Origin: Escherichia phage phiAPCEc03 | Sequence record: NC_047754.1 | Length of the DNA stretch: 64,000 nt | Strand: one strand, 5' to 3' | Part shown: positions 1-49,554 of the stretch, piece after piece | Layout of the letters: every line of letters starts with the position of its first letter | Position numbering within the stretch: position 1 is the first letter of the stretch | Position numbers and translations under genes: made by a program | Notes under the pieces: generated by a model | Told to the model about the DNA's origin: nothing | Seen by the model: the letters and a program-made list of their open reading frames with translations, nothing else | Database searches by the model: none

Positions 1-330
1 TATGAAAGTTCTGACCCGGCTATCTTTTCACTAATTAAAAACGGTGTACTGAAAACTTTTAGTATCGGATTCCGCTGCCTAGATGCAGAGTGGGATGAAG
101 CTACTGATATATTTATTATTAAAGATTTAGAACTATACGAAGTTTCGGTAGTTTCTGTACCTTGTAATCAGGACTCAACGTTCAATCTCGCTAAGAGCAT
201 GAATGGTCATGATTATACTGAATGGCGTAAATCTTTTACTGCAATAAGTTCTAAAGCTGTCCCAGCTCAAGAACGTAATCTTTCTGAACTAGAAAAACTT
301 GCGATAGCTTTAGGCTACGTTAAAGAATAA
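1..330 (+). CDS. Prohead protease, C-terminal part (5' end lies outside window)
   Basis: Open frame from position 1 to TAA at 328-330; sits directly upstream of the major capsid gene as in T5 (pb11 position). Confidence 0.55.
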   Translation, partial: YESSDPAIFSLIKNGVLKTFSIGFRCLDAEWDEATDIFIIKDLELYEVSVVSVPCNQDSTFNLAKSMNGHDYTEWRKSFTAISSKAVPAQERNLSELEKLAIALGYVKE

Positions 331-347
331 CGGAGAATTATTTAAAA

Positions 348-1721
348 ATGACTATTGATATTAATAAGCTGAAAGAAGAACTTGGTCTGGGTGATCTGGC
401 TAAATCTCTGGAAGGTCTGACCGCTGCTCAGAAAGCTCAGGAAGCTGAACGTATGCGTAAAGAGCAGGAAGAAAAAGAACTGGCTCGTATGAATGACCTG
501 GTTTCTAAAGCTGTTGGTGAAGACCGTAAGCGTCTGGAAGAGGCTCTGGATCTGGTTAAGTCTCTGGATGAGAAATCTAAGAAGAGCGCAGAACTGTTTG
601 CACAAACTGTAGAAAAACAACAGGAAACTATTGTTGGTCTTCAGGACGAAATTAAATCTCTGCTAACAGCTCGTGAAGGTCGTTCCTTTGTTGGTGATAG
701 TGTTGCTAAAGCACTGTACGGTACTCAGGAAAACTTTGAAGACGAAGTAGAAAAACTGGTTCTGTTGTCTTATGTAATGGAAAAAGGTGTATTCGAAACC
801 GAACACGGTCAAAAACACCTGAAAGCAGTGAATCAGTCCTATTCTGTAGAAGTTTCTAGTGAAAGCTATGAAACTATTTTCTCCCAGCGTATTATCCGTG
901 ACCTGCAGAAAGAGCTGGTAGTTGGCGCACTGTTCGAAGAACTGCCGATGTCTAGTAAAATTCTTACTATGTTGGTTGAGCCAGACGCTGGTAAAGCTAC
1001 TTGGGTTGCTGCTTCTACTTATGGTACTGATGCAACTACTGGTAATGAAGTTAAAGGTGCTCTTAAAGAAATCCACTTCAGTACTTACAAACTGGCTGCT
1101 AAGTCCTTCATTACTGATGAAACTGAAGAAGATGCAATCTTCTCTCTGCTGCCTCTGCTGCGTAAACGCCTGATTGAAGCACACGCTGTTTCTATCGAAG
1201 AAGCGTTTATGACTGGTGATGGTTCTGGTAAGCCGAAAGGCCTGTTGACTCTTGCTAGAGAAGATGATGCTAAAGTTGCTACTGAAGCTAAAGCTGATGG
1301 TACTGTTCTGGTAACTGCTAAAACTATCTCTAAACTGCGTCGTAAACTGGGTCGTCATGGTCTGAAACTGAGCAAACTGGTACTTATCGTATCTATGGAT
1401 GCTTACTACGATCTTCTGGAAGATGAAGAATGGCAGGATGTTGCACAGGTTGGTAACGATGCTGTTAAACTGCAAGGTCAGGTTGGTCGTATTTACGGTC
1501 TGCCGGTTGTAGTTTCTGAGTACTTCCCAGCTAAAGCTGCTTCCGCAGAGTTCGCAGTTATTGTTTATAAAGATAACTTCGTAATGCCGCGTCAGCGTGC
1601 TGTTACTGTTGAGCGTGAGCGCCAAGCTGGTAAACAGCGTGACGCATACTACGTTACCCAGCGTGTTAACCTGCAACGTTACTTTGCAAATGGCGTTGTA
1701 TCTGGTACTTACGATGCTTAA
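348..1721 (+). CDS. Major capsid protein precursor with N-terminal scaffolding (delta) domain, T5 pb8-like
   Basis: 457 aa, matching T5 pb8 size as recalled; first ~150 aa are charged and coiled-coil-like (EELGLGDLAKSLEGL...KEQEEKELARMNDL); SD GGAG upstream; strongest codon bias in the window. Confidence 0.9.
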   Translation: MTIDINKLKEELGLGDLAKSLEGLTAAQKAQEAERMRKEQEEKELARMNDLVSKAVGEDRKRLEEALDLVKSLDEKSKKSAELFAQTVEKQQETIVGLQDEIKSLLTAREGRSFVGDSVAKALYGTQENFEDEVEKLVLLSYVMEKGVFETEHGQKHLKAVNQSYSVEVSSESYETIFSQRIIRDLQKELVVGALFEELPMSSKILTMLVEPDAGKATWVAASTYGTDATTGNEVKGALKEIHFSTYKLAAKSFITDETEEDAIFSLLPLLRKRLIEAHAVSIEEAFMTGDGSGKPKGLLTLAREDDAKVATEAKADGTVLVTAKTISKLRRKLGRHGLKLSKLVLIVSMDAYYDLLEDEEWQDVAQVGNDAVKLQGQVGRIYGLPVVVSEYFPAKAASAEFAVIVYKDNFVMPRQRAVTVERERQAGKQRDAYYVTQRVNLQRYFANGVVSGTYDA

Positions 1722-1742
1722 TACAGGCTTTTCAGCCGATAA

Positions 1743-1766
1743 GGAGAGCTTCGGCTCTCCTTTTTT
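1743..1766 (+). terminator. Rho-independent terminator after capsid gene
   Basis: Hairpin GGAGAGC-TTCG-GCTCTCC followed by TTTTTT. Confidence 0.8.
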
Positions 1767-1780
1767 ATTGGGAAAAATAA

Positions 1781-2293
1781 ATGCAAATAATCACAGCTGA
1801 AGATTATAGATTATATGGCGGGTTAAAACGACCTGAACTAGAATCTGGAGTAGAGATGATGATTACTGCTGCCAATGCGCTGATTACTAGCCTTTTAGGT
1901 ATGGATGATGCTGATGCGGTAGACCAGTTAATCAATACAAAACCTACTCGTAAAAAATACTTTTTAAGTTCTCCCTCAGCTACTTCAGTAACCAAAATGA
2001 CTATTAATGATAAGGAGATAGATCCCGAACAGTATAAGTTGTACTCTGATGGGGTTATACTTCTTAAATTTAATCCTCCGGAAGGTTATATGGATGTAGA
2101 GTACACACAAGGTGGATTTAATCCAATACCTGAGGATCTCAAACTTGCAGCATGTATGCTAGTAGATCATTGGCATAAACAGGATTACCGTCAAGCTAAA
2201 ACAATTGGTGGAGAAACAGTTACTTTTAATAATACTAAGTCTGGTATTCCAGAGCATATTCGTACTATTATTGAAGTTTACAGGAGAGTATAA
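1781..2293 (+). CDS. Head-tail adaptor / connector protein (gp6-like)
   Basis: 170 aa; N-terminus ITAEDYRLYGGLKRPELESGVEMMITAANALIT resembles gp6-type head-tail connectors; position right after capsid gene. Confidence 0.5.
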   Translation: MQIITAEDYRLYGGLKRPELESGVEMMITAANALITSLLGMDDADAVDQLINTKPTRKKYFLSSPSATSVTKMTINDKEIDPEQYKLYSDGVILLKFNPPEGYMDVEYTQGGFNPIPEDLKLAACMLVDHWHKQDYRQAKTIGGETVTFNNTKSGIPEHIRTIIEVYRRV

Positions 2294-3060
2294 TGTCTCT
2301 TTCTGATTTAGCTACACAAATTATTAAGGAGCAACTAGATACTGTCGGACGTTCCGAGAACAATAAAAATACTGTTGTATACTCTGTTGAAACAGGATTA
2401 AAAGATCCTACTAGGGACGGTACTGTTGCTCAAGTATCTTTTAAGTTTTCAAAACCTGTATCACAAGATCTTCTTAATATTAGAACCGCTTCTATATTAA
2501 AAGCTGTATCCTCTAGTTTAGATCTTTCTGGAGATTTAGGTGCTCTAGAGAACTTAATACAAGCAACCGCTGGTAAAAAATCCTCAGTAGGTAAAAAACG
2601 TTCTACTGGTAGAGTGCAGGTAAATTTTGGGGATCCTAGAGACGTAGAAGATGGATATTCTGGTGCAGTAACAGGTGCTTCAGGACGTTTTGTATCAAAT
2701 AGCAATATGAAGGTTATTCTGGAGTTGGTTGCTAAAGAATACTTAATAAAGGATATGAAAAAAGCAGGAGCGCCATTAAAATTTAGAACTGGTCGCTTTG
2801 CAAACTCTTTAAAAATTAAAGATGTTATGCTTAGAGACGCAGAGACTAGTAAAGGTGCCCCAGAACTAAACGTAACATATAACTATATGACTCGTCCATA
2901 TTCTGTATTCAACCCCGCAGTATCTACATACAGAAGATTATCTCTACGACCTTATCCTGGCGCTAGAAACCCACAAAAACTTATTGGTGAGGCTATAGCA
3001 AAAGCTGCAAGAGACCTGATTCACTCCAGATATAAAATTAAGGTTAATCAAGGAACCTAA
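2293..3060 (+). CDS. Neck / head-completion protein (hypothetical)
   Basis: 255 aa ORF, start overlaps upstream stop (TAATG); function inferred from position only. Confidence 0.4.
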   Translation: MSLSDLATQIIKEQLDTVGRSENNKNTVVYSVETGLKDPTRDGTVAQVSFKFSKPVSQDLLNIRTASILKAVSSSLDLSGDLGALENLIQATAGKKSSVGKKRSTGRVQVNFGDPRDVEDGYSGAVTGASGRFVSNSNMKVILELVAKEYLIKDMKKAGAPLKFRTGRFANSLKIKDVMLRDAETSKGAPELNVTYNYMTRPYSVFNPAVSTYRRLSLRPYPGARNPQKLIGEAIAKAARDLIHSRYKIKVNQGT

Positions 3061-3063
3061 TAA

Positions 3064-3549
3064 ATGGACCATAGAACAAGTATTGCACAAGCTATGGTTG
3101 ACCGAATCTCTAAACAAATGGATGGTTCTCAACCTGACGAATATTTTAATAACCTATACGGAAACGTTTCTCGTCAAACTTATAAATTTGAGGAAATACG
3201 AGAGTTTCCTTATGTGGCAGTTCATATCGGAACTGAAACTGGGCAGTATCTTCCTTCGGGCCAACAGTGGATGTTTTTAGAACTTCCAATCCTGGTGTAC
3301 GATAAAGAGAAAACAGACATTCAAGAGCAACTTGAAAAACTCGTAGCGGATATAAAAACCGTTATTGACACAGGTGGAAATTTAGAATATACTGTTAGTA
3401 AACCTAATGGATCGACCTTCCCATGTGAGGCAACTGATATGATCATTACATCAGTTAGTACAGATGAGGGTCTACTGGCCCCATATGGTTTAGCAGAAAT
3501 AAATGTAACAGTGAGGTATCAGCCTCCACGTAGGTCACTTCGCAGATAA
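3064..3549 (+). CDS. Tail terminator / tail completion protein (T5 p142-like)
   Basis: 161 aa ORF immediately upstream of the tail tube gene; position and size agree with T5 p142 as recalled. Confidence 0.45.
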   Translation: MDHRTSIAQAMVDRISKQMDGSQPDEYFNNLYGNVSRQTYKFEEIREFPYVAVHIGTETGQYLPSGQQWMFLELPILVYDKEKTDIQEQLEKLVADIKTVIDTGGNLEYTVSKPNGSTFPCEATDMIITSVSTDEGLLAPYGLAEINVTVRYQPPRRSLRR

Positions 3550-3575
3550 GTTACAGATTAGGAGAAAATAATTAA

Positions 3576-4970
3576 ATGTCTTTACAACTATTACGTAATA
3601 CTCGAATCTTCGTGTCTACGGTTAAGACCGGTCACAATAAGACCAACACGCAAGAGATTCTAGTTCAGGATGATATTTCTTGGGGTCAGGACAGTAACTC
3701 AACAGATATTACTGTTAATGAAGCTGGTCCGCGTCCAACTCGTGGTTCTAAACGTTTTAATGACTCTTTAAACGCAGCTGAGTGGAGTTTCTCTACTTAT
3801 ATCCTGCCGTATAAAGATAAAAATACTAACAAACAAATTGTTCCTGACTATATGTTATGGCATGCACTTTCTAGTGGTAAAGCCCTTAACCTGGAAGGTG
3901 ATACAGGGGCACACAATAACGAAGCTAACTTTATGGTTAACTTCAAAGATAACTCCTATCATGAGTTAGCAATGTTACATATTTATATTCTGACTGATAA
4001 AGCATGGAGTTATATCGATTCCTGTCAGATTAATCAGGCAGAAGTTAACGTTGATATCGAAGATATTGGCCGTGTAACTTGGTCTGGTAATGGTAATCAG
4101 CTTATTCCTCTGGATAAGCAACCATTTGACCCAGATAAATTAGGTATTGATGATGAAACTTATATGACTATCCAGAGTTCTTATATTAAGAACAAACTTA
4201 CTATCCTGAAAATTAAGGATATGGATTCTGGTAAAGCATATGATATTCCTATTACTGGTGGTACTTTCACTATTAATAACAACATCACGTACCTAACCCC
4301 GAATATTATGTCCCGTGTAAATATTCCGATCGGTTCATTTACTGGTGCATTTGAACTAACTGGTTCATTAACTGCTTATCTGAATGATAAATTTCTTGGT
4401 TCTATGGAGCTGTACAAAGATCTTATCAAAACTCTGAAGGTAGTTAACCGCTTCGAAATTGCTCTAGTACTTGGTGGTGAATACAAGGAAGAACGTCCTG
4501 CGGCTATTCTGGTAGCTAAACAAGCACACGTTAATATTCCTACTATTGAAACTGATGATGTACTTGGTACTTCAGTAGAGTTTAAAGCTATTCCATCTGA
4601 TCTGGATGCTGGTGATGAAGGTTACTTAGGCTTCTCTAGTAAATATACCAAAACAACTATTAATAACTTGATTGTTAATGGTGATGGTGCTACTAATGCT
4701 GTAACCGCAATTACTGTTAAATCTGCTGGTGATGCTACTACAGTAAACAACTCGGCTACTCTTCAAATGAGTGTTGAAGTTACTCCTTCTCCCGCAAAGA
4801 ATAAGGAAGTTACTTGGGCTATCACTGCCGGTGATGCAGCTACTATCAGTGCAACCGGACTGTTGACAGCAGATGCTAGTAAAACTGGTGCAGTTACTGT
4901 GAAAGCTACTGCTAAAGATGGTTCTGGAGTTAAAGGTACTAAACAGATTACTGTAACAGCAGGTGGCTAA
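3576..4970 (+). CDS. Tail tube protein with C-terminal Ig-like domain (T5 pb6-like)
   Basis: 464 aa, matching pb6 size as recalled; C-terminus (VTAITVKSAGDATTVNNSATLQMSVEVTPSPA...VTVKATAKDGSG) is Ig/BIG2-like; SD AGGAGA upstream. Confidence 0.85.
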   Translation: MSLQLLRNTRIFVSTVKTGHNKTNTQEILVQDDISWGQDSNSTDITVNEAGPRPTRGSKRFNDSLNAAEWSFSTYILPYKDKNTNKQIVPDYMLWHALSSGKALNLEGDTGAHNNEANFMVNFKDNSYHELAMLHIYILTDKAWSYIDSCQINQAEVNVDIEDIGRVTWSGNGNQLIPLDKQPFDPDKLGIDDETYMTIQSSYIKNKLTILKIKDMDSGKAYDIPITGGTFTINNNITYLTPNIMSRVNIPIGSFTGAFELTGSLTAYLNDKFLGSMELYKDLIKTLKVVNRFEIALVLGGEYKEERPAAILVAKQAHVNIPTIETDDVLGTSVEFKAIPSDLDAGDEGYLGFSSKYTKTTINNLIVNGDGATNAVTAITVKSAGDATTVNNSATLQMSVEVTPSPAKNKEVTWAITAGDAATISATGLLTADASKTGAVTVKATAKDGSGVKGTKQITVTAGG

Positions 4971-4974
4971 TTAA

Positions 4975-5874
4975 ATGTACTACTCTCTAATGAGAGAGTC
5001 AAAAGTTATAGTTGAGTATGATGGTAGGGCATTTCATTTTGATGCCCTATCAAACTATGATATACAGACTTCCTACGAGGAATTCAAGACTCTTCGTAGG
5101 ACTGTTCATCGTAGAACTAACTATGCAGACTCTATTATAAATGCTCAAACTCCCTCTTCTATCTCTCTAGCAGTAAATTTCAGCAATACTCTTACTGAGG
5201 CTAACTTCTTTGAATGGTTAGGTTTTGATAGAAAAGGTAATACTTTCTTACTCCCACTATATAGTAATAATATTGAACCTATTATGTTCAATATCTATAT
5301 AGTAAACAAAGATAATAACTGTGTATATTTTGAAAACTGCTATGTATCTACAGTAGATTTTTCTTTAGATAAGAATATACCAATTCTTAATGTTGGTATT
5401 GAGTCTGGGAAATTCTCAGAAGTATCTACCTATAGAGAAGCCGCTTCTATTATACAGGGTGAAGTAATGTCTTACAGCCCAGTAATAGCTTCTACTAATG
5501 GCAGCATCTTACCCGGTCTTATTTCTGCCTCTTTATCTTTCCAACAGCAGTGCTCCTGGAGAGAGGATAAGAGTGTTTTTGATATAAATAAAATTTATAA
5601 TAATAAAAGAGCCTATGTAACTGAAATGAATGCTTCGGCAACCCTTTCTCTGTATTACTTAAAACGTTTTGCAGGAGATATGGTTTATAATATAGAACCG
5701 GAGATAGATGTACCTTTAACGATAAGAAATAATAATATTTCTATAGATTTTCCTTCAGCACGTATTACAAAACGCCTAGATTTCTCAGATGTGTATAGAG
5801 TTGAGTGGGATATTATACCTACTGCCTCCTCAGACCCAGTGAGAATAGATTTCTTTGGAGAAATTAAAAAATGA
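4975..5874 (+). CDS. Hypothetical tail-associated protein
   Basis: 299 aa ORF between tail tube and chaperone genes; AT-rich relative to neighbours. Confidence 0.4.
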   Translation: MYYSLMRESKVIVEYDGRAFHFDALSNYDIQTSYEEFKTLRRTVHRRTNYADSIINAQTPSSISLAVNFSNTLTEANFFEWLGFDRKGNTFLLPLYSNNIEPIMFNIYIVNKDNNCVYFENCYVSTVDFSLDKNIPILNVGIESGKFSEVSTYREAASIIQGEVMSYSPVIASTNGSILPGLISASLSFQQQCSWREDKSVFDINKIYNNKRAYVTEMNASATLSLYYLKRFAGDMVYNIEPEIDVPLTIRNNNISIDFPSARITKRLDFSDVYRVEWDIIPTASSDPVRIDFFGEIKK

Positions 5875-6275
5875 TTAATTTAAAAGATATTACTCTTGAT
5901 ACTCGTACTATTACTCTTTCCTACCCAGGTATGCCGAACTTTAAACTAGAACTTAACTATATGTCTCGTGCTACCTCTAAACGTGTTATTTCTTCTGCTA
6001 AACGCGATGAATGGGTTAACGGTACTTTGGTTCAGGTACAGGATGATGATAAGTTCATTGAAGCCTTCGTTGATGCTGCGATTAAAGGTTGGACTGGTTT
6101 GACTGTTGGTGACGTTGAAAAACTGATGCTGATTGAAACAGATGCTGATCCTGAGACTGAAGTTCCTTTTAGTCGCGATAATGCTGTAATGCTTATGCAG
6201 AACTCTTCTGCGTTTGATTCCTGGATCAACCAGACAGTGTTCCACTTAGACACTTTTCGTAGCTCAAAAGCGTAA
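5871..6275 (+). CDS. Tail assembly chaperone (G-like)
   Basis: 134 aa ORF upstream of the tape measure gene; start overlaps upstream stop (ATGA). Confidence 0.45.
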   Translation: MINLKDITLDTRTITLSYPGMPNFKLELNYMSRATSKRVISSAKRDEWVNGTLVQVQDDDKFIEAFVDAAIKGWTGLTVGDVEKLMLIETDADPETEVPFSRDNAVMLMQNSSAFDSWINQTVFHLDTFRSSKA

Positions 6276-6336
6276 AGAGTTACTAGATGCTGTTGCTGAT
6301 TTTGCAGACAAATGTATTAAAAGCTCAGCATCTAAA

Positions 6337-6705
6337 ATGACTAAACAACAATATTTAATACTTTGCGAGTCAATGGGTATAGAGCCTGATCCTAAGGCTA
6401 TGCCCGTTGAACTTGAGGATTTTCCACCTATTGTAGCTATTAGTATGAATATTTATAATAGTCTAGTTGACTGTTTCATACCTGGTGACTTCCCTATCTT
6501 TATAGGTAAAGACAAAGCTGCTTTAGGTGTTTTATTTGATATTTATGGGATTACTGATCCTATAGAAAAAGAATTTGTTCTACACATTATCAATATATTT
6601 GATGCTAAAGCTGTAGACGCTGCACGTAAACGTGCTGAGAAGCATAAGCCGCAAAACGGTAGAATACCTAACGTTAAGCCGCACGCCAGATCTCGAGCAC
6701 GGTAA
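6337..6705 (+). CDS. Tail assembly chaperone, second ORF (possible frameshift extension, frame open from 6250)
   Basis: 122 aa ORF with no SD; its frame is open back to 6250 and overlaps the end of 5871..6275 by 26 nt. Confidence 0.4.
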   Translation: MTKQQYLILCESMGIEPDPKAMPVELEDFPPIVAISMNIYNSLVDCFIPGDFPIFIGKDKAALGVLFDIYGITDPIEKEFVLHIINIFDAKAVDAARKRAEKHKPQNGRIPNVKPHARSRAR

Positions 6706-6740
6706 AAGTTTCCTCCAATGGGCGTTCCACGATGAGGCTT

Positions 6741-6771
6741 GGCTCTGGGTGATTTGCCCAGAGCCTTTTTT
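6741..6771 (+). terminator. Rho-independent terminator
   Basis: Hairpin GGCTCTGGG-TGATTTG-CCCAGAGCC followed by TTTTTT. Confidence 0.8.
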
Positions 6772-6788
6772 ATTGGGAAAAATAAAAT

Positions 6789-9700
6789 ATGACTGATAAG
6801 CTAATACGAGAATTACTAATAGACGTTAAACAGAAGGGGGCAACCCGTACTGCAAAGTCTATTGAAAACGTATCTGATGCATTAGAAAATGCTGCTGCTG
6901 CTTCCGAACTGACAAATGAACAGTTAGGTAAAATGCCCAAAACTCTATATTCCATTGAGAGGGCAGCAGATAGAGCAGCGAAAAGTCTTACTAAAATGCA
7001 AGCTAGCAGAGGTATGCTTAGTATTACTAAATCTATTAATGATATAGGAGCTAAGTTAGATGATCTCGCTATTACAATGATTGAAGTAGCAGATAAATTA
7101 GAAGTCGGATTTGATGGAGTTTCTAGATCTGTTAAAACAATGGGCAATGATGTTGCAGCTGCAACAGAGAAGGTTCAAGATAGGTTATATGATACTAATA
7201 GGGCTTTAGGAGGTACGGCTAAAGGCTTTAATGATACTACTGGTGCTGCTGGTAGAGCTTCTAGAGCTATTGGTAATACTTCTGGTTCAGCACGTGGTGC
7301 AACTCGTGATTTTGCAGCAATGGCTAAAATTGGTGGTAGTTTACCTATTATGTACGCAGCTCTTGCTTCCAATATCTTCGTTCTGCAATCCGCGTTCGAA
7401 CAACTTAAACTAGGTGATCAGTTAAATCGTCTAGAAAAATTTGGTGTTATAGTAGGTACTCAGACTGGTACTCCTGTTCAGTCTCTTGCTAGATCACTAC
7501 AAGAAGCTGCCGGGTATGCTATCTCCTTTGAAGAAGCAATGAGACAAGCATCCTCAGCGTCCGCTTATGGCTTTGATGCCGAACAACTTAATAAATTTGG
7601 TTTAGTAGCTCGTCGTGCTGCTGCTGTTCTTGGTGTTGATATGACTGATGCACTTAACCGTGTAATTAGGGGCGTATCTAAACAAGAAATCGAACTTCTG
7701 GATGAACTTGGTGTCACCATCCGTCTTAATGACGCATACGCTGATTATGTTAAACAGTTAAATGCTGCAAACACAGGTATAACATATAATGTTAATAGTC
7801 TTACCACTTTCCAGAAACAACAAGCATACGCTAACGCGGTAATTGCTGAATCTACTAAGCGGTTTGGCTACCTAGATGAAGTACTACGTGCAACTCCATG
7901 GGAGCAATTTGCTGCTAATGCAGATGCTGCACTAAGAAAAATACAACAAGCTGCTGCTAAGTATTTAGGGCCAGTAATTGATGCTATCAACACAGTATTT
8001 TATACATCTCAGGCTTCTATATCTGCTGAGGCAGCTAGAGCTCAAGAAAAAACTAATAGACAGATAGACCCTACCAACGTTGGTGCTGTTGCTTTAAGTT
8101 TAGCTGCTTCTGAAGAAGGCTATAATAAAGCTCTAGATATGTATAAGGAATCTCTTGATAAGCGTAATAAGCTAAAATCTGAGTTCGATAAACGAATGGA
8201 ACAAGCAGATTTCTATACAAAACTAGCTATACGTCAAGTTGGTGAAGGTATTCCTGTTGGTCTTGCAGCAGCAGGTGCTTCGGAGGCCAATAAGCAATTT
8301 GTAGCAGAAACTGCAGCTATGGGTTTACAAGTAACTAGACTTGGTAAAGAAGTAGAGGATTCTACTGAAAACCTCAATGCTTGGAAATCAGCGTATCAAG
8401 CTGCTGGAGCTGCTGCTGCAAAAGCTAACCCCGAGTTTCAGAAGCAAATTAATCTACAGAGAGATACTACTGATCCTGATGCTGTATACGATTTTAACTC
8501 TACTGTATTAAAAGGACTAACTGAGCAGCAGAAAGCGTACAATCAGACTAAGAAAACTGCTAGTGACTTAGCTAATGATATACAGAACGTTGCTCAGAAT
8601 ACAGATACTGCTGCTAAAACTAGTACTACGTTAGCAGATGCTATAAAAAACATAGAATCTCTATCTCTAGGTACGGGTAAAAGTGCAGATGAGTATGTTA
8701 AAAATCTTAATTTAGGCTATAATACGTTATCTGAGATGAAAACTGCTTCTCAGGCCTTGTCCGAGTATGTTAAACTAACTGGTAATGAAACTAAAAATCA
8801 GTTAGCAGTTCAACAGAAAATAGCCGATGTGTATAATCAAACTAAGGATAAGGAAAAGGCTCAGGAAGCTGGTAGACGTTTAGAGTTGCAACAGTTAGAA
8901 GAGCAAGAAGCTGCTTTACGCCGTGTTCTTCAAACAAACCAGGGAAATAAAGCTGTTGAGAAAGAAATTGAAAAAATTCAGCTGGAGAAACTTAAACTTA
9001 CCAATCAGGGTATGGAGGCCCAGAAGAAGATTAAGGATTATACAGATAAAATCCTGGGTGTAGATCGTGAGATAGCTCTTCTGAATGACCGCACTATGAC
9101 TACTACTCAATATAGATTAGCTCAGCTAAAACTAGAACTAACTATAGAGAAAGAGAAGTACGAATGGTATACAAAACAAGCGGACAAACAGAAAGAGGCA
9201 GAACAGTCTAGACGTGCTCAAGCACAAATAAGCAGAGAAATATGGGAAGCGGAGAAACAGGCAACTGCCTCACATGTATCAGCTCTCATGGATGCGCTAG
9301 AGGTCAGCCAAACGCAGAGGAATGTTACTGGTCAATCTCAAATTCTTACTGAAAGATTATCCATTCTGCAGCAACAGCTGGAGCTGTCTAAGGGCAATAC
9401 TGAGGAAGAAATTAAATATCGTAATGAGATTTATAAAACTTCGGCGGCCTTAGAGCAGCTTAGAAAACAGAGAGATATCCAGATGCAGCAACAGGTGGGA
9501 TCTTCTGTAGGTGCTGTATATACTCCTACAACTGGACTATCTGGGGAGGATAAAGATTTTGCTGATATGCAAAATAGAATGGCTTCTTATGATCAGGCAA
9601 TCTCTAAACTATCTGAATTAAATTCTGAAGCAACCGCTGTGGCTCAAAGTATGGGTAACTTAACTAACGCTATGATTCAGTTCTCTCAGGGATCCCTAGA

Positions 9701-10469
9701 TACTACCTCCTTGATTGCTTCTGGCATGCAAACTGTATCTTCTATGATTCAGTATAGTACTAGTCAACAGGTTAGTGCAATTGATCAGGCTATTGCAGCA
9801 GAACAGAAACGTGATGGTAAATCAGAAGCATCTAAAGCTAAGTTGAAGAAGTTGGAAGCTGAAAAGCTGAAGATTCAACAAGACGCAGCTAAGAAGCAGA
9901 TTATCATCCAAACTGCAGTAGCTGTAATGCAAGCGGCAACAGCTGTACCATACCCGTTCTCTATTCCTTTAATGGTTGCGGCAGGTTTAGCGGGTGCATT
10001 GGCGTTAGCACAAGCATCTTCTGCATCTGGTATGTCAAGTATTGCTGATTCTGGGGCGGATACAACTAGTTACTTAACCTTAGGAGAGCGTCAGAAGAAT
10101 ATAGATGTGTCCATGTCTGCTAATGCAGGTGAACTATCTTATATTCGTGGCGATCAAGGTATAGGTAGTGCCAACTCTTTCGTTCCTCGTGCTGAGGGTG
10201 GTAATATGTATCCAGGGGTTAGCTATCAAATGGGTGAGCATGGTACAGAAGTAGTTACCCCTATGGTTCCTATGAAAGCTACACCTAATGATGAGCTAAA
10301 AACCTCGTCTAACTCAACTTCAGGAAGACCTATCATCCTGAATATTAGTGCTATGGATGCTGCAAGTTTTAGAGAGTTTGCTTCTAGTAATAGTGGTGCT
10401 CTAAGAGACGCGGTAGAATTAGCTCTGAATGAGAACGGTGCTAGTCTGAAAACATTAGGAAATTCTTAA
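6789..10469 (+). CDS. Tail tape measure protein (T5 pb2-like)
   Basis: 1226 aa, long Ala/Gln/Glu-rich coiled-coil stretches, hydrophobic segment near residue 1050 (AVPYPFSIPLMVAAGLAGALALA); position before Dit and hub. Confidence 0.9.
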   Translation: MTDKLIRELLIDVKQKGATRTAKSIENVSDALENAAAASELTNEQLGKMPKTLYSIERAADRAAKSLTKMQASRGMLSITKSINDIGAKLDDLAITMIEVADKLEVGFDGVSRSVKTMGNDVAAATEKVQDRLYDTNRALGGTAKGFNDTTGAAGRASRAIGNTSGSARGATRDFAAMAKIGGSLPIMYAALASNIFVLQSAFEQLKLGDQLNRLEKFGVIVGTQTGTPVQSLARSLQEAAGYAISFEEAMRQASSASAYGFDAEQLNKFGLVARRAAAVLGVDMTDALNRVIRGVSKQEIELLDELGVTIRLNDAYADYVKQLNAANTGITYNVNSLTTFQKQQAYANAVIAESTKRFGYLDEVLRATPWEQFAANADAALRKIQQAAAKYLGPVIDAINTVFYTSQASISAEAARAQEKTNRQIDPTNVGAVALSLAASEEGYNKALDMYKESLDKRNKLKSEFDKRMEQADFYTKLAIRQVGEGIPVGLAAAGASEANKQFVAETAAMGLQVTRLGKEVEDSTENLNAWKSAYQAAGAAAAKANPEFQKQINLQRDTTDPDAVYDFNSTVLKGLTEQQKAYNQTKKTASDLANDIQNVAQNTDTAAKTSTTLADAIKNIESLSLGTGKSADEYVKNLNLGYNTLSEMKTASQALSEYVKLTGNETKNQLAVQQKIADVYNQTKDKEKAQEAGRRLELQQLEEQEAALRRVLQTNQGNKAVEKEIEKIQLEKLKLTNQGMEAQKKIKDYTDKILGVDREIALLNDRTMTTTQYRLAQLKLELTIEKEKYEWYTKQADKQKEAEQSRRAQAQISREIWEAEKQATASHVSALMDALEVSQTQRNVTGQSQILTERLSILQQQLELSKGNTEEEIKYRNEIYKTSAALEQLRKQRDIQMQQQVGSSVGAVYTPTTGLSGEDKDFADMQNRMASYDQAISKLSELNSEATAVAQSMGNLTNAMIQFSQGSLDTTSLIASGMQTVSSMIQYSTSQQVSAIDQAIAAEQKRDGKSEASKAKLKKLEAEKLKIQQDAAKKQIIIQTAVAVMQAATAVPYPFSIPLMVAAGLAGALALAQASSASGMSSIADSGADTTSYLTLGERQKNIDVSMSANAGELSYIRGDQGIGSANSFVPRAEGGNMYPGVSYQMGEHGTEVVTPMVPMKATPNDELKTSSNSTSGRPIILNISAMDAASFREFASSNSGALRDAVELALNENGASLKTLGNS

Positions 10470-10473
10470 AACT

Positions 10474-10503
10474 GGAGGAGGACTTTGAGTCCTCCTTTTC
10501 TTT
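10474..10503 (+). terminator. Rho-independent terminator
   Basis: Hairpin GGAGGACT-TTG-AGTCCTCC followed by TTTTCTTT. Confidence 0.75.
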
Positions 10504-10522
10504 ATGGAAAAATAAAAATTTC

Positions 10523-10551
10523 TTGATAAAATTTTCTAATACTATTATAAT
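10523..10551 (+). promoter_or_regulatory. Sigma70-like promoter upstream of Dit gene
   Basis: TTGATA at 10523-10528, 17-bp spacer, TATAAT at 10546-10551; followed by SD AAGAGGAGAAATTAACTATG. Confidence 0.55.
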
Positions 10552-10578
10552 AATTGTATCTAAGAGGAGAAATTAACT

Positions 10579-11193
10579 ATGAGATTACCAGACCCATACA
10601 CGAATCCAGAACTTTCAGGATTAGGATTCGAAAGTGTTAACCTGATTGATAATGACCCAGTAATTCGTGATGAGTTACCAAATGGTAAAGTTAACGAAGT
10701 TAAGGTATCTGCTCAATACTGGGGTATAAATATTTCTTATCCAGAATTATTTCCAGATGAATATAATGTTCTAGATGCTTTTATTCTAGAATACAAAAGG
10801 ACTGGTAGTTATATAGATGTTATATTACCCCAATACGAAGCTTTTAGAGTTAGAGGTAATACTAACTTAGTAAATATACCAGCAGGACAAAAAGGTTCCA
10901 ATATTACTATGGATACAAAAGGTGTTCTTACCGGTATCCCTAAACCAGGTGATTTATTTAAATTATCCAATCACCCAAAAGTTTATAAAATAACATCATT
11001 TAATAGATCTGGTAATTCATGGTCTATTAACGTATACCCTGATTTATTTGTAACGACTACTGGAGCTGAAAAACCAGTATTTAATGGGATACTGTTTAGA
11101 ACAAAACTCATGAATGGTGATGCTTTCGGATCTACATTAAATAATAACGGAACGTATTCCGGCATCTCATTAAATTTACGGGAAAGTTTATGA
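10579..11193 (+). CDS. Distal tail protein Dit (T5 pb9-like)
   Basis: 204 aa, matching pb9 size as recalled; strong SD; position between tape measure and hub. Confidence 0.8.
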   Translation: MRLPDPYTNPELSGLGFESVNLIDNDPVIRDELPNGKVNEVKVSAQYWGINISYPELFPDEYNVLDAFILEYKRTGSYIDVILPQYEAFRVRGNTNLVNIPAGQKGSNITMDTKGVLTGIPKPGDLFKLSNHPKVYKITSFNRSGNSWSINVYPDLFVTTTGAEKPVFNGILFRTKLMNGDAFGSTLNNNGTYSGISLNLRESL

Positions 11194-14039
11194 AAAAAAT
11201 ACTAGATAGTGCTAGAAACTACTTAAAAAATAATAGCAGAATAAAAACTGCTAGTCTAATTTCCCTAGAATTACCTGGCTCTACTGGTACTAGTACTGCT
11301 TTTATTTATTTAACTGATTATTTTAGAGATGTACTATATAATGGTATTTTGTACCAGGCCGGTAAGGTTAAGTCCATTAGCACACATAAACAAAATAGAG
11401 ATTTATCTATTGGCAGTCTATCTTTTACTATTACAGGTACAGCGCAGGATGAAGTACTAAAACTAGTGCAAAATGGTGTATCCTTCTTAGATAGAACCGT
11501 ATCAATTCATCAAGCAATTATTACTGAAGATGGTTCTATTCTACCAGTAGACCCCGATACAAATGGTCCTTTACTATATTTTAGAGGGAGGATTACTGGA
11601 GGGGGTATTAAAGATAACATTAGTACCTCTGGAGTAGGAACCTCTACAATTACCTGGAATTGTTCTAACCAATTCTATGACTTTGATAGAGTTAATGGTA
11701 GATATACTGATGACGCTTCCCATAGGGGGCTTGAAGTTGTAGCTGGACAGTTAGTACCATCTAATGGTGCTAAAAGACCAGAGTATCAAGAAGACTACGG
11801 CTTCTTCCACTCTAATAAAAGTATCTCTATCCTAGCAAAATATCAGGTTCAAGAAGAAAGATACAAGCTAAAATCAAAGAAAAAATTATTTGGTTTATCT
11901 AGAAGCTACAGCCTTAAAAAATACTATGAAACTGTCACTAAGGAAGTGGATATAGATTTTAACCTTGCTGCTAAATACATACCGGTGGTTTATGGAGTTC
12001 AAAAAATTCCTGGAATACCCATTTTTGCTGATACAGAACTACACAATCCCAACATAGTTTATGTCGTATACGCCTTTGCTGAGGGGGAGATTGATGGTTT
12101 TCTTGATTTCTCCTTTGGTGATAACCCTATGATCTGCGTAGATGCTAATGACAGCTCCGCTAGAACCTGCTTTGGTACTAAAAAAATAGCAGGAGATACA
12201 ATGCAGAGGATAGCATCTGGAACCTCTTCTAGTAGTCCATCCGTCCATGGTCAAGAGTATAAGTATAATGATGGAAATGGTGACATAAGGATTTGGACTT
12301 ATCACGGAAAATCTGATCAAACAGCCTCTGAAGTACTAGTAGATATAGCTAAAGAACGTGGATTCTACCTTCAGAATATGAATGGCAATGGGCCGGAGTA
12401 CTGGGATGCTAGATATAAGCTACTAGATACTGCATACGCAGTGGTGCGCTTCACTATTAATGAAAATAGGACTGAGATTCCAGAAGTTAGTGCTGAAATT
12501 CAAGGTAAAAAAGTAAAAGTCTATCATTCTGATGGTAGAGTAACTGCTAATAGTACTAGTTTAAATGGTATTTGGCAAACACTTGATTACTTAACCTCTG
12601 ATAGATATGGCGCTAATATTACCATTGATCAGTTCCCCCTTCAGCAATTAATACAGGAAGCATCTATTTTAGATATTATAGATGAATCCTATCAGGTATC
12701 TTGGCAGCCATATTGGAGATACGTTGGGTGGACTGATCCACTAGCAGAAAATAGACAAATAGTACAAATGAATACTATTCTGGATACATCTGAATCAGTA
12801 TTTAAAAATGTGCAAGGTTTGTTAGAGTCCTATGGTGGGGCTATTAACAATTTATCTGGCCAGTATAGGGTTACTGTAGAAAAATACTCTAATACTCCCT
12901 TAGAGATTAATTTTCTAGATACTTACGGTGATTTGGAGCTATCAGATACTACTGGTAGAAATAAATTCAACTCAGTTCAAGCATCTATCGTAGATCCCGC
13001 CCTTAGCTGGAAAACTAATTCTATTACATTCTATAATTCCAAGTATAAGGAACAGGACAAGAACCTAGATAAAAAATTACAACTATCTTTTGCTAATATT
13101 ACTAACTACTATACTGCAAGAAGTTTTGCGGATAGAGAACTTAAGAAATCCAGATACTCAAGAACACTTTCTTTCTCATTACCATACCAGTTCATAGGGA
13201 TTGAACCCAATGATGCTATTGCATTCACGTATGACCGTTACGGGTGGAACAGAAAGTATTTCCTAGTTGATGAGGTTGAAAACTCTAGAGAGGGTAAGAT
13301 AAATGTTACCTTACAGGAGTATGGAGAGGATGTATTCATCAACTCTGAGCAGGTTGATAATAGCGGTAATGATATTCCTGATATTAGTAACAATGTCCTT
13401 CCTCCTAGAGACTTTAAATATACTCCTACTCCTGGCGGTTTAGTAGGCTCTATAGGTAAAAATGGTGAGTTATCCTGGCTTCCGAGTCTAACCAATAATG
13501 TAGTTTACTACTCTATTGTGCACTCAGGCCATGCCGAACCTTACATAATACAACAGTTAGAGACCAATCCTAACGAACGTATGATCCAAGAAATAATTGG
13601 GGAACCAGCAGGTCTGGCTATATTTGAGATAAGGGCAGTAGATATTAATGGTAGAAGAAGTTCCCCGGTGACTCTGTCTATAGAACTTAACTCTGCTAAA
13701 AACCTTAGTGTAGTATCTAATTTTAGGGTAACTAATACGGCCTCTGGGGATGTAACTGAGTTTGTCGGCCCAGATGTAAAACTAGCTTGGGATAGGATAC
13801 CGGAAGAAGATATAATAGAGAGTATATTTTATACCCTTGAAATACACGATTCACAAAATAGGATGTTAAGAAGTGTACGTATTGAAAATCAGTATACTTA
13901 TGACTATTTATTAACGTATAATAAGGCAGATTTTGCTCTCCAGAACAGCGGTGCTCTAGGTATAAATAGAAAATTGTATTTTCGTATTAGGGCTGAGGGG
14001 AATGATGGAGAACAGTCTGTGGAGTGGGCATCCATTTAA
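11190..14039 (+). CDS. Baseplate hub / tail-associated protein (T5 pb3-like)
   Basis: 949 aa, matching pb3 size as recalled; start overlaps Dit stop (ATGA). Confidence 0.8.
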   Translation: MKKILDSARNYLKNNSRIKTASLISLELPGSTGTSTAFIYLTDYFRDVLYNGILYQAGKVKSISTHKQNRDLSIGSLSFTITGTAQDEVLKLVQNGVSFLDRTVSIHQAIITEDGSILPVDPDTNGPLLYFRGRITGGGIKDNISTSGVGTSTITWNCSNQFYDFDRVNGRYTDDASHRGLEVVAGQLVPSNGAKRPEYQEDYGFFHSNKSISILAKYQVQEERYKLKSKKKLFGLSRSYSLKKYYETVTKEVDIDFNLAAKYIPVVYGVQKIPGIPIFADTELHNPNIVYVVYAFAEGEIDGFLDFSFGDNPMICVDANDSSARTCFGTKKIAGDTMQRIASGTSSSSPSVHGQEYKYNDGNGDIRIWTYHGKSDQTASEVLVDIAKERGFYLQNMNGNGPEYWDARYKLLDTAYAVVRFTINENRTEIPEVSAEIQGKKVKVYHSDGRVTANSTSLNGIWQTLDYLTSDRYGANITIDQFPLQQLIQEASILDIIDESYQVSWQPYWRYVGWTDPLAENRQIVQMNTILDTSESVFKNVQGLLESYGGAINNLSGQYRVTVEKYSNTPLEINFLDTYGDLELSDTTGRNKFNSVQASIVDPALSWKTNSITFYNSKYKEQDKNLDKKLQLSFANITNYYTARSFADRELKKSRYSRTLSFSLPYQFIGIEPNDAIAFTYDRYGWNRKYFLVDEVENSREGKINVTLQEYGEDVFINSEQVDNSGNDIPDISNNVLPPRDFKYTPTPGGLVGSIGKNGELSWLPSLTNNVVYYSIVHSGHAEPYIIQQLETNPNERMIQEIIGEPAGLAIFEIRAVDINGRRSSPVTLSIELNSAKNLSVVSNFRVTNTASGDVTEFVGPDVKLAWDRIPEEDIIESIFYTLEIHDSQNRMLRSVRIENQYTYDYLLTYNKADFALQNSGALGINRKLYFRIRAEGNDGEQSVEWASI

Positions 14040-16096
14040 TGATTTCAAATAATGCACCAGCCAAAATGGTCTTAAATAGTATAATGACTGGATATACTTT
14101 GGCTTATGTCCAGCACTCCATTTATACTGATTATGATGTTATTGGTAGATCTTTTTGGTTAAAAATAGGAGAAAGTATAGATAGACGTGATTACACCGGT
14201 ATAGATACTTTCTTCGTAATGATTAATAATCTAACCCCCTCTACCTCCTATGAGATTCAGGGGGCTTTCTATGACTCAATTATTGACTCAGAGTTACTGG
14301 AAGCTAAGATTGGTATCAACCTCTCTAATGAAACTAATTTTAGAACAAAGGAAAAGCCAATAATTGTTGCAGCAAGATCTGAATCAGAACCCGTCGACGT
14401 TGGTGTTGGTGCTCCAATAGTTGTTGTAGAGACTGCTGGTGAAGCTAGTTACTGCACTATTGAATTAAAAAGTACTGCATCAGAAGACAGTGAATGGGTT
14501 AAGTATTATATAGGTGCGCTGGGACCTACTATCAAATTTGGTGGTGTTCCTGTTGGAGACTATAAGATCAGAATATCTGGTCAAGTTACGATGCCAGATG
14601 GTGTTACAGTTGACTCATCTGGCTATTATGAATATCCTAGCGTTTTCACTGTAGCTTATAATTTCGTACCACCTACTGCACCTACTAACATTGCCTTTAA
14701 AACTGCACGAATCGCAGACGGTAAGGAACGATATGATGTTAGAATAGAATGGGACTGGGAACGTGGTGCTGGTGCTAATGTCCGTGAATTTCTGGTTACT
14801 TATATAAACTCTGAAGAATACGCTAAGACTGGTTGGGCTAAAGCTCAAAAGATAAACGTTGGGGCTGCTAGAGCTGCAACAATTATATCATTCCCATGGA
14901 AAGTTGAGCATACTTTTAAGGTATCATCAATTGCCTGGGGACCAAATAAGCAAGATATAACAGAATCAGCTCCTGTAACATTTATATTGAATGAAGATAC
15001 TCCTCTAGACAACAGCTTTGTCAATGAGACGGGTATTGATGTTAATTATGCCTTTATTAAGGGCAGCATGAAAGATGGAGAAATCTGGAGACAGACATTC
15101 TTAATCGATGCAGCTACTGGTGCTATTAACATTGGTCTGCTAGATGAAGAAGGAAAAGCACCTATTTCTTTTGACCCTATAAACCGTGTTGTTAACGTTG
15201 ATGGTAAAGTAATTACTAGAGATATTAATGCTGCGAACTTTATCATGACTAACTTATCTGGTAAGGATAACCCAGCAATTTACACTCAAGGTAAATCTTG
15301 GGGGGATAATAACTCCGGTATTTGGATGGGTATGGATAATACCTCTGCCAAAGCTAAGTTAGACATTGGTAATGCCACACAGTGGATTCGTTATGATGGT
15401 GATGTGCTACGTATTTCTAGTGGAGTAGTTATTGGAACTCCTAATGGCGATGTAGATCTTGGTACTGGTATGCAAGGTAAGCAAACAGTATTTGTTTATA
15501 AGTTAGCAACATCTCTACCTGCTAAACCACTAGAACAAGATTATCCGCCTCCTGGTTGGTCAAAAACTCCACCTAACCGTACAGATATGACACAAAATAT
15601 CTATGCCACTACAGGTACACTTGATCCCGTTACTAACAAACTTCTTGAAGGTACTAGCTGGTCTGATGTAGTTCAGTGGAGTGGTACTGAGGGTACTATA
15701 GGACATGATGGACAACGTGGTCCTGGGATGTACTCCTTAGGTATTCCTGGTCTTGGAGGCTGGGATGATGGACAAGCTAATGCCTTCTTCCAGAATAACT
15801 TTGGTAGTCCTCCTGTTAGATATGATGTATTAACCGAATTTAATAGTAATGCTCCACAATCAGCATTTACCAGACAATGGAATGGATCTGGGTGGGTGAA
15901 CCCTGCAATGGTTCTTCATGGGAACATGATTGTTAATGGAACAGTGACGGCAGATAAAATTGTAGCAGGAAATGCTTTCTTGTCTCAAATTGGTGTTAAT
16001 ATCATTTATGATAGAAATGCTGCGTTATCCTGGAATCCTGAGGCATACTACAAGATGAAGATAGACCTAAATAGTGGGTATATCCATATAAGGTAA
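14024..16096 (+). CDS. Central tail fibre / baseplate protein (T5 pb4-like)
   Basis: 690 aa ORF directly after hub gene; size close to pb4 as recalled. Confidence 0.7.
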   Translation: MGIHLMISNNAPAKMVLNSIMTGYTLAYVQHSIYTDYDVIGRSFWLKIGESIDRRDYTGIDTFFVMINNLTPSTSYEIQGAFYDSIIDSELLEAKIGINLSNETNFRTKEKPIIVAARSESEPVDVGVGAPIVVVETAGEASYCTIELKSTASEDSEWVKYYIGALGPTIKFGGVPVGDYKIRISGQVTMPDGVTVDSSGYYEYPSVFTVAYNFVPPTAPTNIAFKTARIADGKERYDVRIEWDWERGAGANVREFLVTYINSEEYAKTGWAKAQKINVGAARAATIISFPWKVEHTFKVSSIAWGPNKQDITESAPVTFILNEDTPLDNSFVNETGIDVNYAFIKGSMKDGEIWRQTFLIDAATGAINIGLLDEEGKAPISFDPINRVVNVDGKVITRDINAANFIMTNLSGKDNPAIYTQGKSWGDNNSGIWMGMDNTSAKAKLDIGNATQWIRYDGDVLRISSGVVIGTPNGDVDLGTGMQGKQTVFVYKLATSLPAKPLEQDYPPPGWSKTPPNRTDMTQNIYATTGTLDPVTNKLLEGTSWSDVVQWSGTEGTIGHDGQRGPGMYSLGIPGLGGWDDGQANAFFQNNFGSPPVRYDVLTEFNSNAPQSAFTRQWNGSGWVNPAMVLHGNMIVNGTVTADKIVAGNAFLSQIGVNIIYDRNAALSWNPEAYYKMKIDLNSGYIHIR

Positions 16097-16102
16097 TAAA
16101 TA

Positions 16103-16525
16103 ATGAGTACTGAAAATAGAGTTATAGACTTAGTAATAGATGAGAAAGTACCTTATGGTCTAATGATGCAATTCTTAGATGTTGATGATAGTACTTATCC
16201 CCCTACAAACACCCCTGTTAACTTAACAGGGTATTCTCTAAAGGGTACTATAAAGAATAGCCTTGATGAGAATGCGGAAACTTTGGCATCTTTTACTACT
16301 AAAATTATTGATGCTGCTCAAGGTGCTATAGCTATAAGTTTACCTGTAGAGGCGGTAGATAATATTGGTGAAAAAGCCACCAAAGAGAGAGATAAGTATA
16401 ACCCTCGCCAACGTTTTGCAGGATACTATGATATAATTATGACACGAGATGTCATAGGATCAGCTATTAGCTCTTTTCGTATAATGGAGGGTAAAGTATT
16501 TATCAGTGATGGGGTAACTAGATAA
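16103..16525 (+). CDS. Collar protein (T5 p132-like)
   Basis: 140 aa ORF between pb4-like gene and fibre gene; size and position match p132 as recalled. Confidence 0.55.
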
Positions 16526-19236: not shown

Positions 19237-19246
19237 GAGGTGATCA

Positions 19247-49490: not shown

Positions 49491-49554
49491 ATATTTGTAA
49501 GTTGATAAACAAGATCTTTTTGTTGATCCTCTGTTAGCGAAGTACACTATAGGA

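Follow-up and report, generated by a model that had tools for sequence, protein, structure and literature searches.

Layout of the three junctions

The DNA analysed, hereafter the window, is a stretch of 64,000 nucleotides from Escherichia phage phiAPCEc03 (NC_047754.1), a T5-like phage (Tequintavirus). Three of its late-gene junctions carry a similar arrangement of sequence elements. Site 1 lies between the major capsid gene and the head-completion gene, site 2 between the gene of a T5.142-like chaperone and the tape-measure (pb2) gene, and site 3 downstream of the tape-measure gene. The features of this region are the following.

1726..1737, + strand: small hairpin GGCT-TTTC-AGCC, between the stop codon of the major capsid gene (1719-1721) and terminator 1
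1743..1769, + strand: terminator 1 (predicted), stem-loop GGAGAGC-TTCG-GCTCTCC (1743-1760) and U-tail TTTTTTATT (1761-1769), directly 3' of the major capsid gene
1770..1783, + strand: ribosome-binding site (predicted) of the head-completion gene, GGGAAAAATAA between U-tail and ATG, with GGGA 1770-1773, spacer AAAATAA 1774-1780 and ATG 1781-1783
3365..3393, + strand: late promoter P-J5, TTGACA-17-TATACT, the nearest promoter 3' of terminator 1
6709..6737, + strand: CU-rich non-coding block TTTCCTCCAA-TGGGCGTTCCACGA-TGAGG, between the chaperone stop codon (6703-6705) and terminator 2
6741..6774, + strand: terminator 2 (predicted), stem-loop GGCTCTGGG-TGATTTG-CCCAGAGCC (6741-6765) and U-tail TTTTTTATT (6766-6774)
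6775..6791, + strand: ribosome-binding site (predicted) of the tape-measure gene, GGGAAAAATAAAAT between U-tail and ATG, with GGGA 6775-6778, A-rich spacer 6779-6788 and ATG 6789-6791
10474..10502, + strand: terminator 3 (predicted), GGAGGAC-TTTGA-GTCCTCC (within 10474-10498) and TTTTCTTT, 3' of the tape-measure gene; the site continues from the hairpin as TTTTCTTTATGGAAAAATAAAAA
10503..10577, + strand: late promoter P-G25, -35 TTGATA 10523-10528, 17 nt, -10 TATAAT 10546-10551

The original prediction described a single cassette, present three times, in which a hairpin with a T-run is followed by an A-rich motif and a start codon. GC-rich hairpins with T-runs are indeed found at 1743-1769, 6741-6774 and 10474-10502, and each is followed by an A-rich block. 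The direct run into an ATG is restricted to sites 1 and 2. At site 3 the block leads into TTGATA-17-TATAAT, and the start codon does not come until 59 nt later. Sites 1 and 2 have the exact 23-mer CCTTTTTTATTGGGAAAAATAAA in common and were the sole matches in a 19-mer search with up to 3 mismatches (chance expectation 0.10). The site-3 motif differs from the other two at 4 of 21 positions. A repeat finder groups all three sites in one family (D11).

Predicted intrinsic terminators

The three hairpins are the highest-scoring terminator-like sites in the window from position 1 to 20000. Their stems comprise 7–11 base pairs (5–7 of them G-C) and are followed by TTTTTT or TTTTCTTT. The distances from the stop codon to the hairpin are 22, 36 and 5 nt for terminators 1, 2 and 3, respectively. 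All three hairpins are annotated as rho-independent terminators in the T5 record AY543070. The record of HdH2 likewise annotates three terminators, and terminator 1 is annotated in the record of Sepoy.

Inspection of relatives showed that a GC-rich hairpin followed by a U-run is present at the terminator 1 junction in 20 of 20 diverged lineages, with many different stem sequences. This comparison is based on folds of the individual sequences; the MAFFT/alifold consensus was poor, as the stems are too different to be aligned. Terminator 2, on the other hand, was recovered as the consensus structure by RNAalifold in 13 lineages, and six of its nine base pairs display compensatory double changes. 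The small hairpin at 1726..1737 retains its GGC/GCC stem in IME260, KKP_3711, L029 and L063, with loops that differ.

No RNA family was matched by Rfam at E ≤ 1 in the window from 1 to 12000, and no mapping of T5 transcript ends (Term-seq, 3' ends) was found in the literature searched. A bidirectional terminator at site 1 was considered and rejected: the sequence behind the hairpin on the opposite strand, TTATCGGC, is not a T-run. Judged by their sequence, the hairpins at sites 1–3 are intrinsic (Rho-independent) terminators, at which termination is predicted.

Predicted ribosome-binding sites at sites 1 and 2

The U-tails at sites 1 and 2 are followed by GGGA, which is separated from the start codon by 6 nt at site 1 and by 9 nt at site 2. 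At both sites the duplex of UGGGAA with the anti-Shine-Dalgarno (anti-SD) sequence of 16S rRNA has a predicted energy of -4.2 kcal/mol. The median for 60 genes of the window is -5.6 kcal/mol, and UGGGAA ranks as the 19th weakest of the 60. Both SD sequences are thus weak and require a G-U pair. The same form of ribosome-binding site (RBS) is present at many other genes of the window, e.g. TTGGAGAAAAATAATAATG and AAAGGAAAATAAATAATG. The start of the head-completion gene is confirmed by the Pfam HCP profile, which spans residues 2–170. For each of the two genes, the GenBank record of Sepoy places the RBS at the GGA within the motif.

Relatives were retrieved by means of the capsid alignment. At both junctions, the hairpin, the U-run, a G-block and the start codon are all retained in about 20 diverged lineages of the Demerecviridae. 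The G-block reads GGG, GGAG, GGAGG, AGGAG or GAGG and is located 2–9 nt before the ATG. GGGA is replaced by GGAGG, AGGAG or GAGG in relatives at site 1, and GGA, GAGG, GGAG, AGGAG or GGAGG occupies the same position at site 2. The A-rich part is free to vary in diverged relatives (TAAAAT, TACTAC, TAATAAA, AACAAG).

An alternative local structure was also considered, a small AU hairpin UUUAUU-GGGAAA-AAUAAA presenting the SD in its loop. Its folding energies (-1.5 kcal/mol, z = -0.6 at site 1; -2.4 kcal/mol, z = -1.6 at site 2) are no better than those of shuffled sequence, and this hairpin was rejected.

Translation initiation was one of two readings put forward in the original prediction. For sites 1 and 2 it is borne out by the pairing of the G-block with the anti-SD, by the canonical SDs that relatives have in its place and by the Sepoy annotation. 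The motif at these sites is, on the grounds of its sequence, a terminator U-tail followed by a weak SD and an A-rich spacer, with a predicted RBS function. Therefore, the 23-mer is very probably the tail of a terminator joined to an RBS and no separate element.

Conservation beyond the basic signals

Among 26 close relatives, 1.5% of the positions differ in the 20 nt upstream of the site-1 ATG; in the flanking gene, about 20% of third codon positions do so. Such a pattern indicates strong purifying selection on the sequence upstream of this start codon. In Tequintavirus and Epseptimavirus, conservation of the spacer exceeds by far the level that an A/T-rich spacer alone would call for, and the identity of 23 nt between sites 1 and 2 goes beyond the demand of a shared function. 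Therefore, there is room for an additional sequence-specific reader, which may be a protein or an RNA.

The CU-rich block between the chaperone gene and terminator 2 (6709-6737) starts 0–13 nt after the chaperone stop codon in every case. It is deeply conserved, from T5-like coliphages to Vibrio phages. A coding function of the block was rejected, since its sub-blocks are separated by indels of 1–2 nt that disrupt all reading frames. It has no Rfam match.

One reading that would make use of this conservation is that the cassette additionally acts as a regulated translational operator. A factor of the phage or the host would bind to the invariant U-tail/GGGAAAAATAAA or, at site 2, the CU-rich block would pair with the U-tail and the SD. 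The candidate pairing segments are UUUCCUCC and UUCCAC with the SD region. Pairing would hide the tape-measure RBS until the chaperone ORF is finished, or it would create a processing helix similar to lambda sib. The fixed position of the block is in line with this reading, as is the much stronger conservation of the spacer, and of the intergenic region as a whole, compared with synonymous sites. Furthermore, the minimum-energy fold of the window extends terminator 2 by CGAUGAGG/UUUUAUUG and UUCC/GGAA pairs, and pairing of the SD with the upstream CU-rich block is predicted in 9 of 15 lineages. In the other six, however, no upstream partner is predicted. Cognate pairs of upstream block and SD are no more stable than non-cognate ones (mean -5.78 versus -6.22 kcal/mol, permutation p = 0.83), and thus there is no support from covariation. 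The terminator hairpin is the sole structure recovered by RNAalifold, the UUUAUU/AAUAAA hairpin does no better than shuffled sequence at either site, and a comparable upstream block is missing at site 1. An operator of this kind is therefore improbable.

A related but narrower idea is slightly less doubtful, although we still regard it as unlikely. Terminator 2 and the anti-SD-like block UUUCCUCCAA...GUUCCACGA...GAGG (6709-6737) might together constitute a larger conserved RNA device at the chaperone/tape-measure junction. If so, the block could reach over the terminator in read-through transcripts and form pairs with the U-tail and GGGA. The tape-measure gene would then be translated only once a ribosome has completed the chaperone ORF, or a sib-like helix would be the target of processing. 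Alternatively, termination may yield a small RNA derived from the 3'UTR, with an anti-SD sequence as its seed. As targets of such a seed, matches to TTGGAGGAAA are present in the window at chance level. Of the whole arrangement, only the deeply conserved CU-rich block 5' of terminator 2 may merit an experiment.

A different explanation treats the identity of 23 nt as a historical trace only, left by duplication, gene conversion or the insertion of mobile genes, with no function as a unit. CapR/zinc-finger ORFs are inserted exactly at these junctions in some relatives, and exact identity of the RBS half is confined to the T5/Epseptimavirus clade, both of which speak for this explanation. Against it, each half has a clear function that is kept across the family, the sequence is under the purifying selection described above, and the two sites vary independently (L011, L017 and L020 change one site each). 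A historical trace alone is thus a very improbable account of the shared sequence.

Site 3 and the late promoters

The site-3 motif TATGGAAAAATAAAAA (10503-10518) corresponds to the first 16 nt of the 75-nt P-G25 feature in AY543070 and spans about -56 to -41, counted from the P-G25 start. GGAAAAATAAAAATTTC lies directly upstream of TTGATA, inside the annotated promoter. The gene following site 3 starts at 10579 and has a strong SD of its own (GAGGAG). From its sequence and position, the A-rich block at site 3 is the upstream A-tract of P-G25, which would be UP-like; it is no new core determinant. In the legend to Fig. S5 of Klimuk et al. (2020, PMC7472727), UP elements are marked in T5 promoters.

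Of the sigma70-type sites in this region, only P-G25 (10523-10551) and P-J5, the latter identical to the annotated P-J5 of T5, correspond to known late promoters of T5. In T5 both are sigma70-type promoters for which late kinetics were determined by primer extension (PMC7472727). The absence of sigma70 -35 and -10 elements, which the original prediction had reported for the cassette as a whole, therefore applies to sites 1 and 2 and not to the surroundings of site 3, with their TTGATA and TATAAT. A promoter scan of 1763-1800 and 6766-6810 revealed no -35/-10 hexamers, and no usable ones emerged when the two sites were set in the register of P-G25. At these two sites the motif holds the SD and ends at the ATG. 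A transcript that begins within or after the motif would thus be devoid of an RBS, so the geometry is wrong for a promoter. Additionally, two independent annotations of T5 are both free of promoters at these sites.

The late-promoter reading of sites 1 and 2 has to be abandoned on these grounds. That the motif is a non-sigma70 or activator-dependent determinant which starts the downstream late gene is scarcely credible: a copy of it does lie inside P-G25, the oad late promoter has AAAAATAA at a similar upstream position, and the T5 switch from early to late transcription is still poorly understood (PMC7472727), but known T5 late promoters are of the sigma70 type with normal hexamers, and it is the SD-like G-block, not the A-rich part, that relatives keep.

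Discussion

The cassette is real but, in all likelihood, ordinary: a terminator that directly adjoins the RBS of the late gene behind it. For the overall explanation, a terminator with an abutting RBS at sites 1 and 2 and a terminator followed by P-G25 at site 3, we estimate a probability of about 0.85. At sites 1 and 2, the late mRNA would carry two ordinary signals in direct succession, an intrinsic terminator with the U-tail TTTTTTATT and, immediately after it, the RBS of the next gene, consisting of (U)GGGA(A), an A-rich spacer of 7–10 nt and the ATG. Since there is no promoter between the terminator and the following gene, transcription of the genes that start at 1781 (head completion) and 6789 (tape measure) would rely entirely on read-through of the terminators. 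We infer both the termination efficiency and the read-through at these junctions. Leaky terminators would act as attenuators, by which expression is stepped down from high-copy upstream products (the major capsid protein at site 1, the tail tube protein and chaperones at site 2) to low-copy downstream products. The head-completion and tape-measure genes, whose products are low-copy, would probably be expressed at a lower level as a result. At site 3, the terminator would end the tape-measure transcript, and the known sigma70-type promoter P-G25 comes next.

With leaky terminators and modest ribosome-binding sites, very different amounts of neighbouring late proteins could be obtained from few sigma70 promoters. 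The cassette is already known in kind: the terminators and P-G25 are present in the T5 annotation and the RBS in the Sepoy record. Because the design is that of a standard phage operon and is already annotated in T5, it has no bearing on the question of the late-transcription switch. The motif is also unsuitable as a late-promoter signature in motif searches.

Several known systems resemble parts of the arrangement. The speculative reading of site 2 shares with lambda sib and with coupling by SD occlusion a helix that would form only in read-through RNA and would join sequences flanking a terminator; it differs from them in that covariation lends no support and the prediction is inconsistent across lineages. 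The likeness to the UP element of P-G25 is limited to site 3, as there is no core promoter downstream of the A-rich block at sites 1 and 2.

Ribosome-binding sites can be enhanced by an A/U-rich context, in which a U-rich leader is bound by ribosomal protein S1 and the spacer is A-rich. Sites 1 and 2 correspond to this type in having a partial SD (GGGA) at a distance of 6–9 nt from the ATG, with an A-rich spacer behind it and a U-rich tract just upstream. Unlike in the usual case, the U-rich leader is the U-tail of the terminator itself, and one sequence would serve both signals.

The terminator T-phi of phage T7 is an internal intrinsic terminator located directly after the major capsid gene 10. 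Here, too, a GC-rich hairpin with a U-run directly follows the most abundant structural gene. Without promoters of their own, the genes behind it would depend on read-through, which would set the stoichiometry of the products. In contrast to T7, transcription is carried out by the host RNA polymerase, the terminator adjoins the next RBS within 20–23 nt, and there are two such junctions, one behind the capsid gene and one in front of the tape-measure gene.

Organization of the late genes and the three cassettes

The first 12 kb of the window are 90–94% identical, over their full length, to several hundred T5-like phages, and the gene content here is that of the T5 late (structural) module. Three cassettes, each with a hairpin, a T-run and an A-rich motif, had been claimed in this module, and all of them are present.

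Late genes and cassettes
348–1721, major capsid protein
1743–1783, site 1 (terminator 1, 1743–1769)
1781–2293, head-completion protein (Pfam HCP)
3576–4970, tail-tube protein pb6
5871–6275 and 6337–6705, tape-measure chaperone ORFs
6741–6791, site 2 (terminator 2, 6741–6774)
6789–10469, tape-measure/pore-forming protein pb2
10474–10520, site 3 (terminator 3, 10474–10502)
10579–11193, distal tail protein pb9

The frame of the second chaperone ORF is open from 6250, is +1 relative to the first ORF and overlaps its final 26 nt. A +1 slip (AAA to AAG) on AAA-AGC at 6267 could give a G-T-type fusion of both ORFs. Further downstream, an ORF of 815 aa (16525–18972) has 21-nt and 75-nt tandem repeats, in frame, at 16676–17499 and is probably a tail-fibre gene.

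Sites 1–3 are the three top matches in a terminator-like scan of positions 1–20000, and the repeat finder groups them in one family (D11). Sites 1 and 2 share the exact 23-mer CCTTTTTTATTGGGAAAAATAAA. A search of the window with a 19-mer motif, allowing up to three mismatches, matched these two sites (0.10 expected) and nothing else. At site 3, 4 of 21 motif positions differ. The proposed order of hairpin, motif and ATG is found at sites 1 and 2, but no ATG directly follows the motif at site 3; the next gene begins at 10579 with a strong Shine-Dalgarno sequence (SD) of its own. The U-tail and A-rich block could form a 6-bp AU hairpin, which is no better than in shuffled sequence, and an Rfam search gave no match.

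A fourth terminator running straight into a weak ribosome-binding site (RBS) lies on the minus strand of the early region at 37828–37812, upstream of ORF 37480–37788 (AGCCCC-TATAT-GGGGCT TTTTGTGTATTTGGAATATGTAAATG, stretch 37828–37786). A small GGC...GCC hairpin at 1726–1737, upstream of terminator 1, is kept in several genera with differing loops (GGCA/TGCC in KKP_3711) and may be a second hairpin stabilizing the 3' end.

Comparison across Demerecviridae

About 20 diverged Demerecviridae lineages, whose capsid identities go down to about 30–45%, supplied the capsid/head-completion and chaperone/tape-measure junctions. In every lineage, the former shows a strong GC-rich hairpin and then a U-run, with many different stem sequences. 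For the latter, the RNAalifold consensus structure is the terminator hairpin, with compensatory double changes in 6 of 9 pairs. On the 3' side of the U-run, every lineage has a recognizable SD variant as G-block (GGG, GGGA, GGAG, GAGG, AGGAG or GGAGG), 2–9 nt from the homologous start codon; anti-SD pairing energies range from −3 to −12.9 kcal/mol. At site 1 of Vibrio phage phi3, TTTTTTATTGGAGGTAATAAAATG places a canonical SD exactly at the GGG position of T5. The sequence of the A-rich part is not kept at the relatives' junctions (TAAAAT, TACTAC, TAATAAA, AACAAG and TTTTT are seen). As judged from these sequences, conservation applies to the arrangement (terminator, then SD, then ATG) and not to the motif itself.

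The original prediction allowed for a translation-initiation element, and this reading holds up for sites 1 and 2: SD variants replace the G-block in relatives, and the Sepoy record annotates the GGA within the motif as RBS for the head-completion and tape-measure genes alike. GGA(G) with an A-rich spacer is a common RBS style in the window (e.g. TTGGAGAAAAATAATAATG, AAAGGAAAATAAATAATG and AGAGGAAATAAAATATG). Anti-SD pairing at sites 1 and 2 (−4.2 kcal/mol) is weaker than the median of 60 genes (−5.6 kcal/mol). For the weak SD, the U-tail may provide a leader that binds S1.

Selection and insertions at the junctions

Among 26 close relatives, 1.5% of positions differ in the 20 nt upstream of the site-1 ATG; at third codon positions of the adjoining genes it is about 20%. 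The site variants found keep or improve the SD (e.g. TTGGG to TTAGG, GGG to GG). Variants alter one site without the other, therefore there is no concerted evolution. The full intergenic regions 1722–1780 and 6706–6788 are near-invariant over Tequintavirus and Epseptimavirus, with flanking synonymous sites ~20% different. Their changes are mostly in the terminator-2 loop, the lengths of homopolymer runs and the two bases preceding the ATG.

Some relatives carry, exactly at these junctions, inserted ORFs that encode a CapR domain and a treble-clef zinc finger.

CapR/zinc-finger inserts in sequences of relatives
L030, 16020–16772 (T5.141)
L017, 9376–9948
L019 and L024, also present

The inserts of L017, L019 and L024 come after the capsid stop codon and before terminator 1. 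The T5 insert follows the terminator-2 U-tail, and the site-2 motif is therefore absent from T5 itself. The inserted ORFs are probably mobile and similar to homing endonucleases.

The CU-rich block upstream of terminator 2

The block TTTCCTCCAATGGGCGTTCCACGATGAGG (6709–6737; layout TTTCCTCCAA-TGGGCGTTCCACGA-TGAGG) sits after the chaperone stop codon and before terminator 2, and it occurs once in the window. It is non-coding, because tolerated indels of 1–2 nt break every reading frame. Neighboring proteins are only 26–55% identical, yet the block is kept in Klebsiella, Enterobacter and Vibrio phages as well as in T5-like coliphages. Rfam gave no match for it. Block A (UUUCCUCC) is similar to the anti-SD of 16S rRNA. 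In single-sequence folds it often pairs with the downstream GAGG, or UUCC reaches across the terminator to pair with the SD beyond it. Such SD pairing is predicted in only 9 of 15 lineages, and a covariation swap test of block against SD gave no signal (p = 0.83). Speculative roles for the block are occluding the SD, with coupling, forming a sib-like helix or yielding a 3'UTR-derived small RNA.

Promoters and the proposed expression scheme

Strong sigma70 promoters precede T5 late genes, and primer extension showed P-J5 and P-G25 transcripts at 30 min (Klimuk et al. 2020, PMC7472727). The alternative that the motif is a late promoter is rejected for sites 1 and 2, where there are no hexamers and the SD-containing motif stops at the ATG; site 1 also carries no promoter in AY692264, another annotation of T5. 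The stated lack of sigma70 −35/−10 elements holds for these two sites but not for site 3, with TTGATA-17-TATAAT directly downstream (10523–10551). In the T5 reference AY543070, P-J5 lies inside T5.146 (window 3365–3393) and P-G25 directly 3' of the third terminator. Since the P-G25 feature, 75 nt as annotated, opens with TATGGAAAAATAAAAATTTCTTGATA, the third motif is its first 16 nt. The A-rich block of site 3 belongs to a known sigma70 late promoter as its upstream A-tract. A similar position in the oad late promoter holds AAAAATAA, and UP elements in T5 promoters are mentioned in the legend of Fig. S5 of PMC7472727. In P-G25 and oad, the A-rich block is of ordinary UP-like composition and not a late-specific determinant.

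A second promoter-like match at 10505–10532 (TGGAAA, 16 nt, TAAAAT, with a TG extended −10; a consensus match only) overlaps the site-3 motif and the −35 hexamer of P-G25. Repeats of about 58–62 nt with TTGCT...TATAATATATT (49452–62143, plus strand, and 27117–47299, minus strand; families D2, D4–D6 and D8) are the T5 early promoter family with its ATATT discriminator (PMC7472727).

Neither a hexamer scan nor the T5 annotations place a promoter between terminator 1 or 2 and the next gene. The head-completion gene and those up to P-J5 would be transcribed only by terminator read-through, as would the tape-measure gene. Because of this presumed dependence, terminators 1 and 2 may act as attenuators, giving a step-down from high-copy (capsid, tail tube) to low-copy products (head completion, tape measure). 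The tape-measure unit would end at terminator 3, and P-G25 restarts transcription for the tail-tip genes.

Comparison with annotated T5-like phages

All three hairpins are putative rho-independent terminators in AY543070, and the HdH2 record annotates the same three terminators. The elements at these sites are ordinary, and public T5-like records already annotate them.
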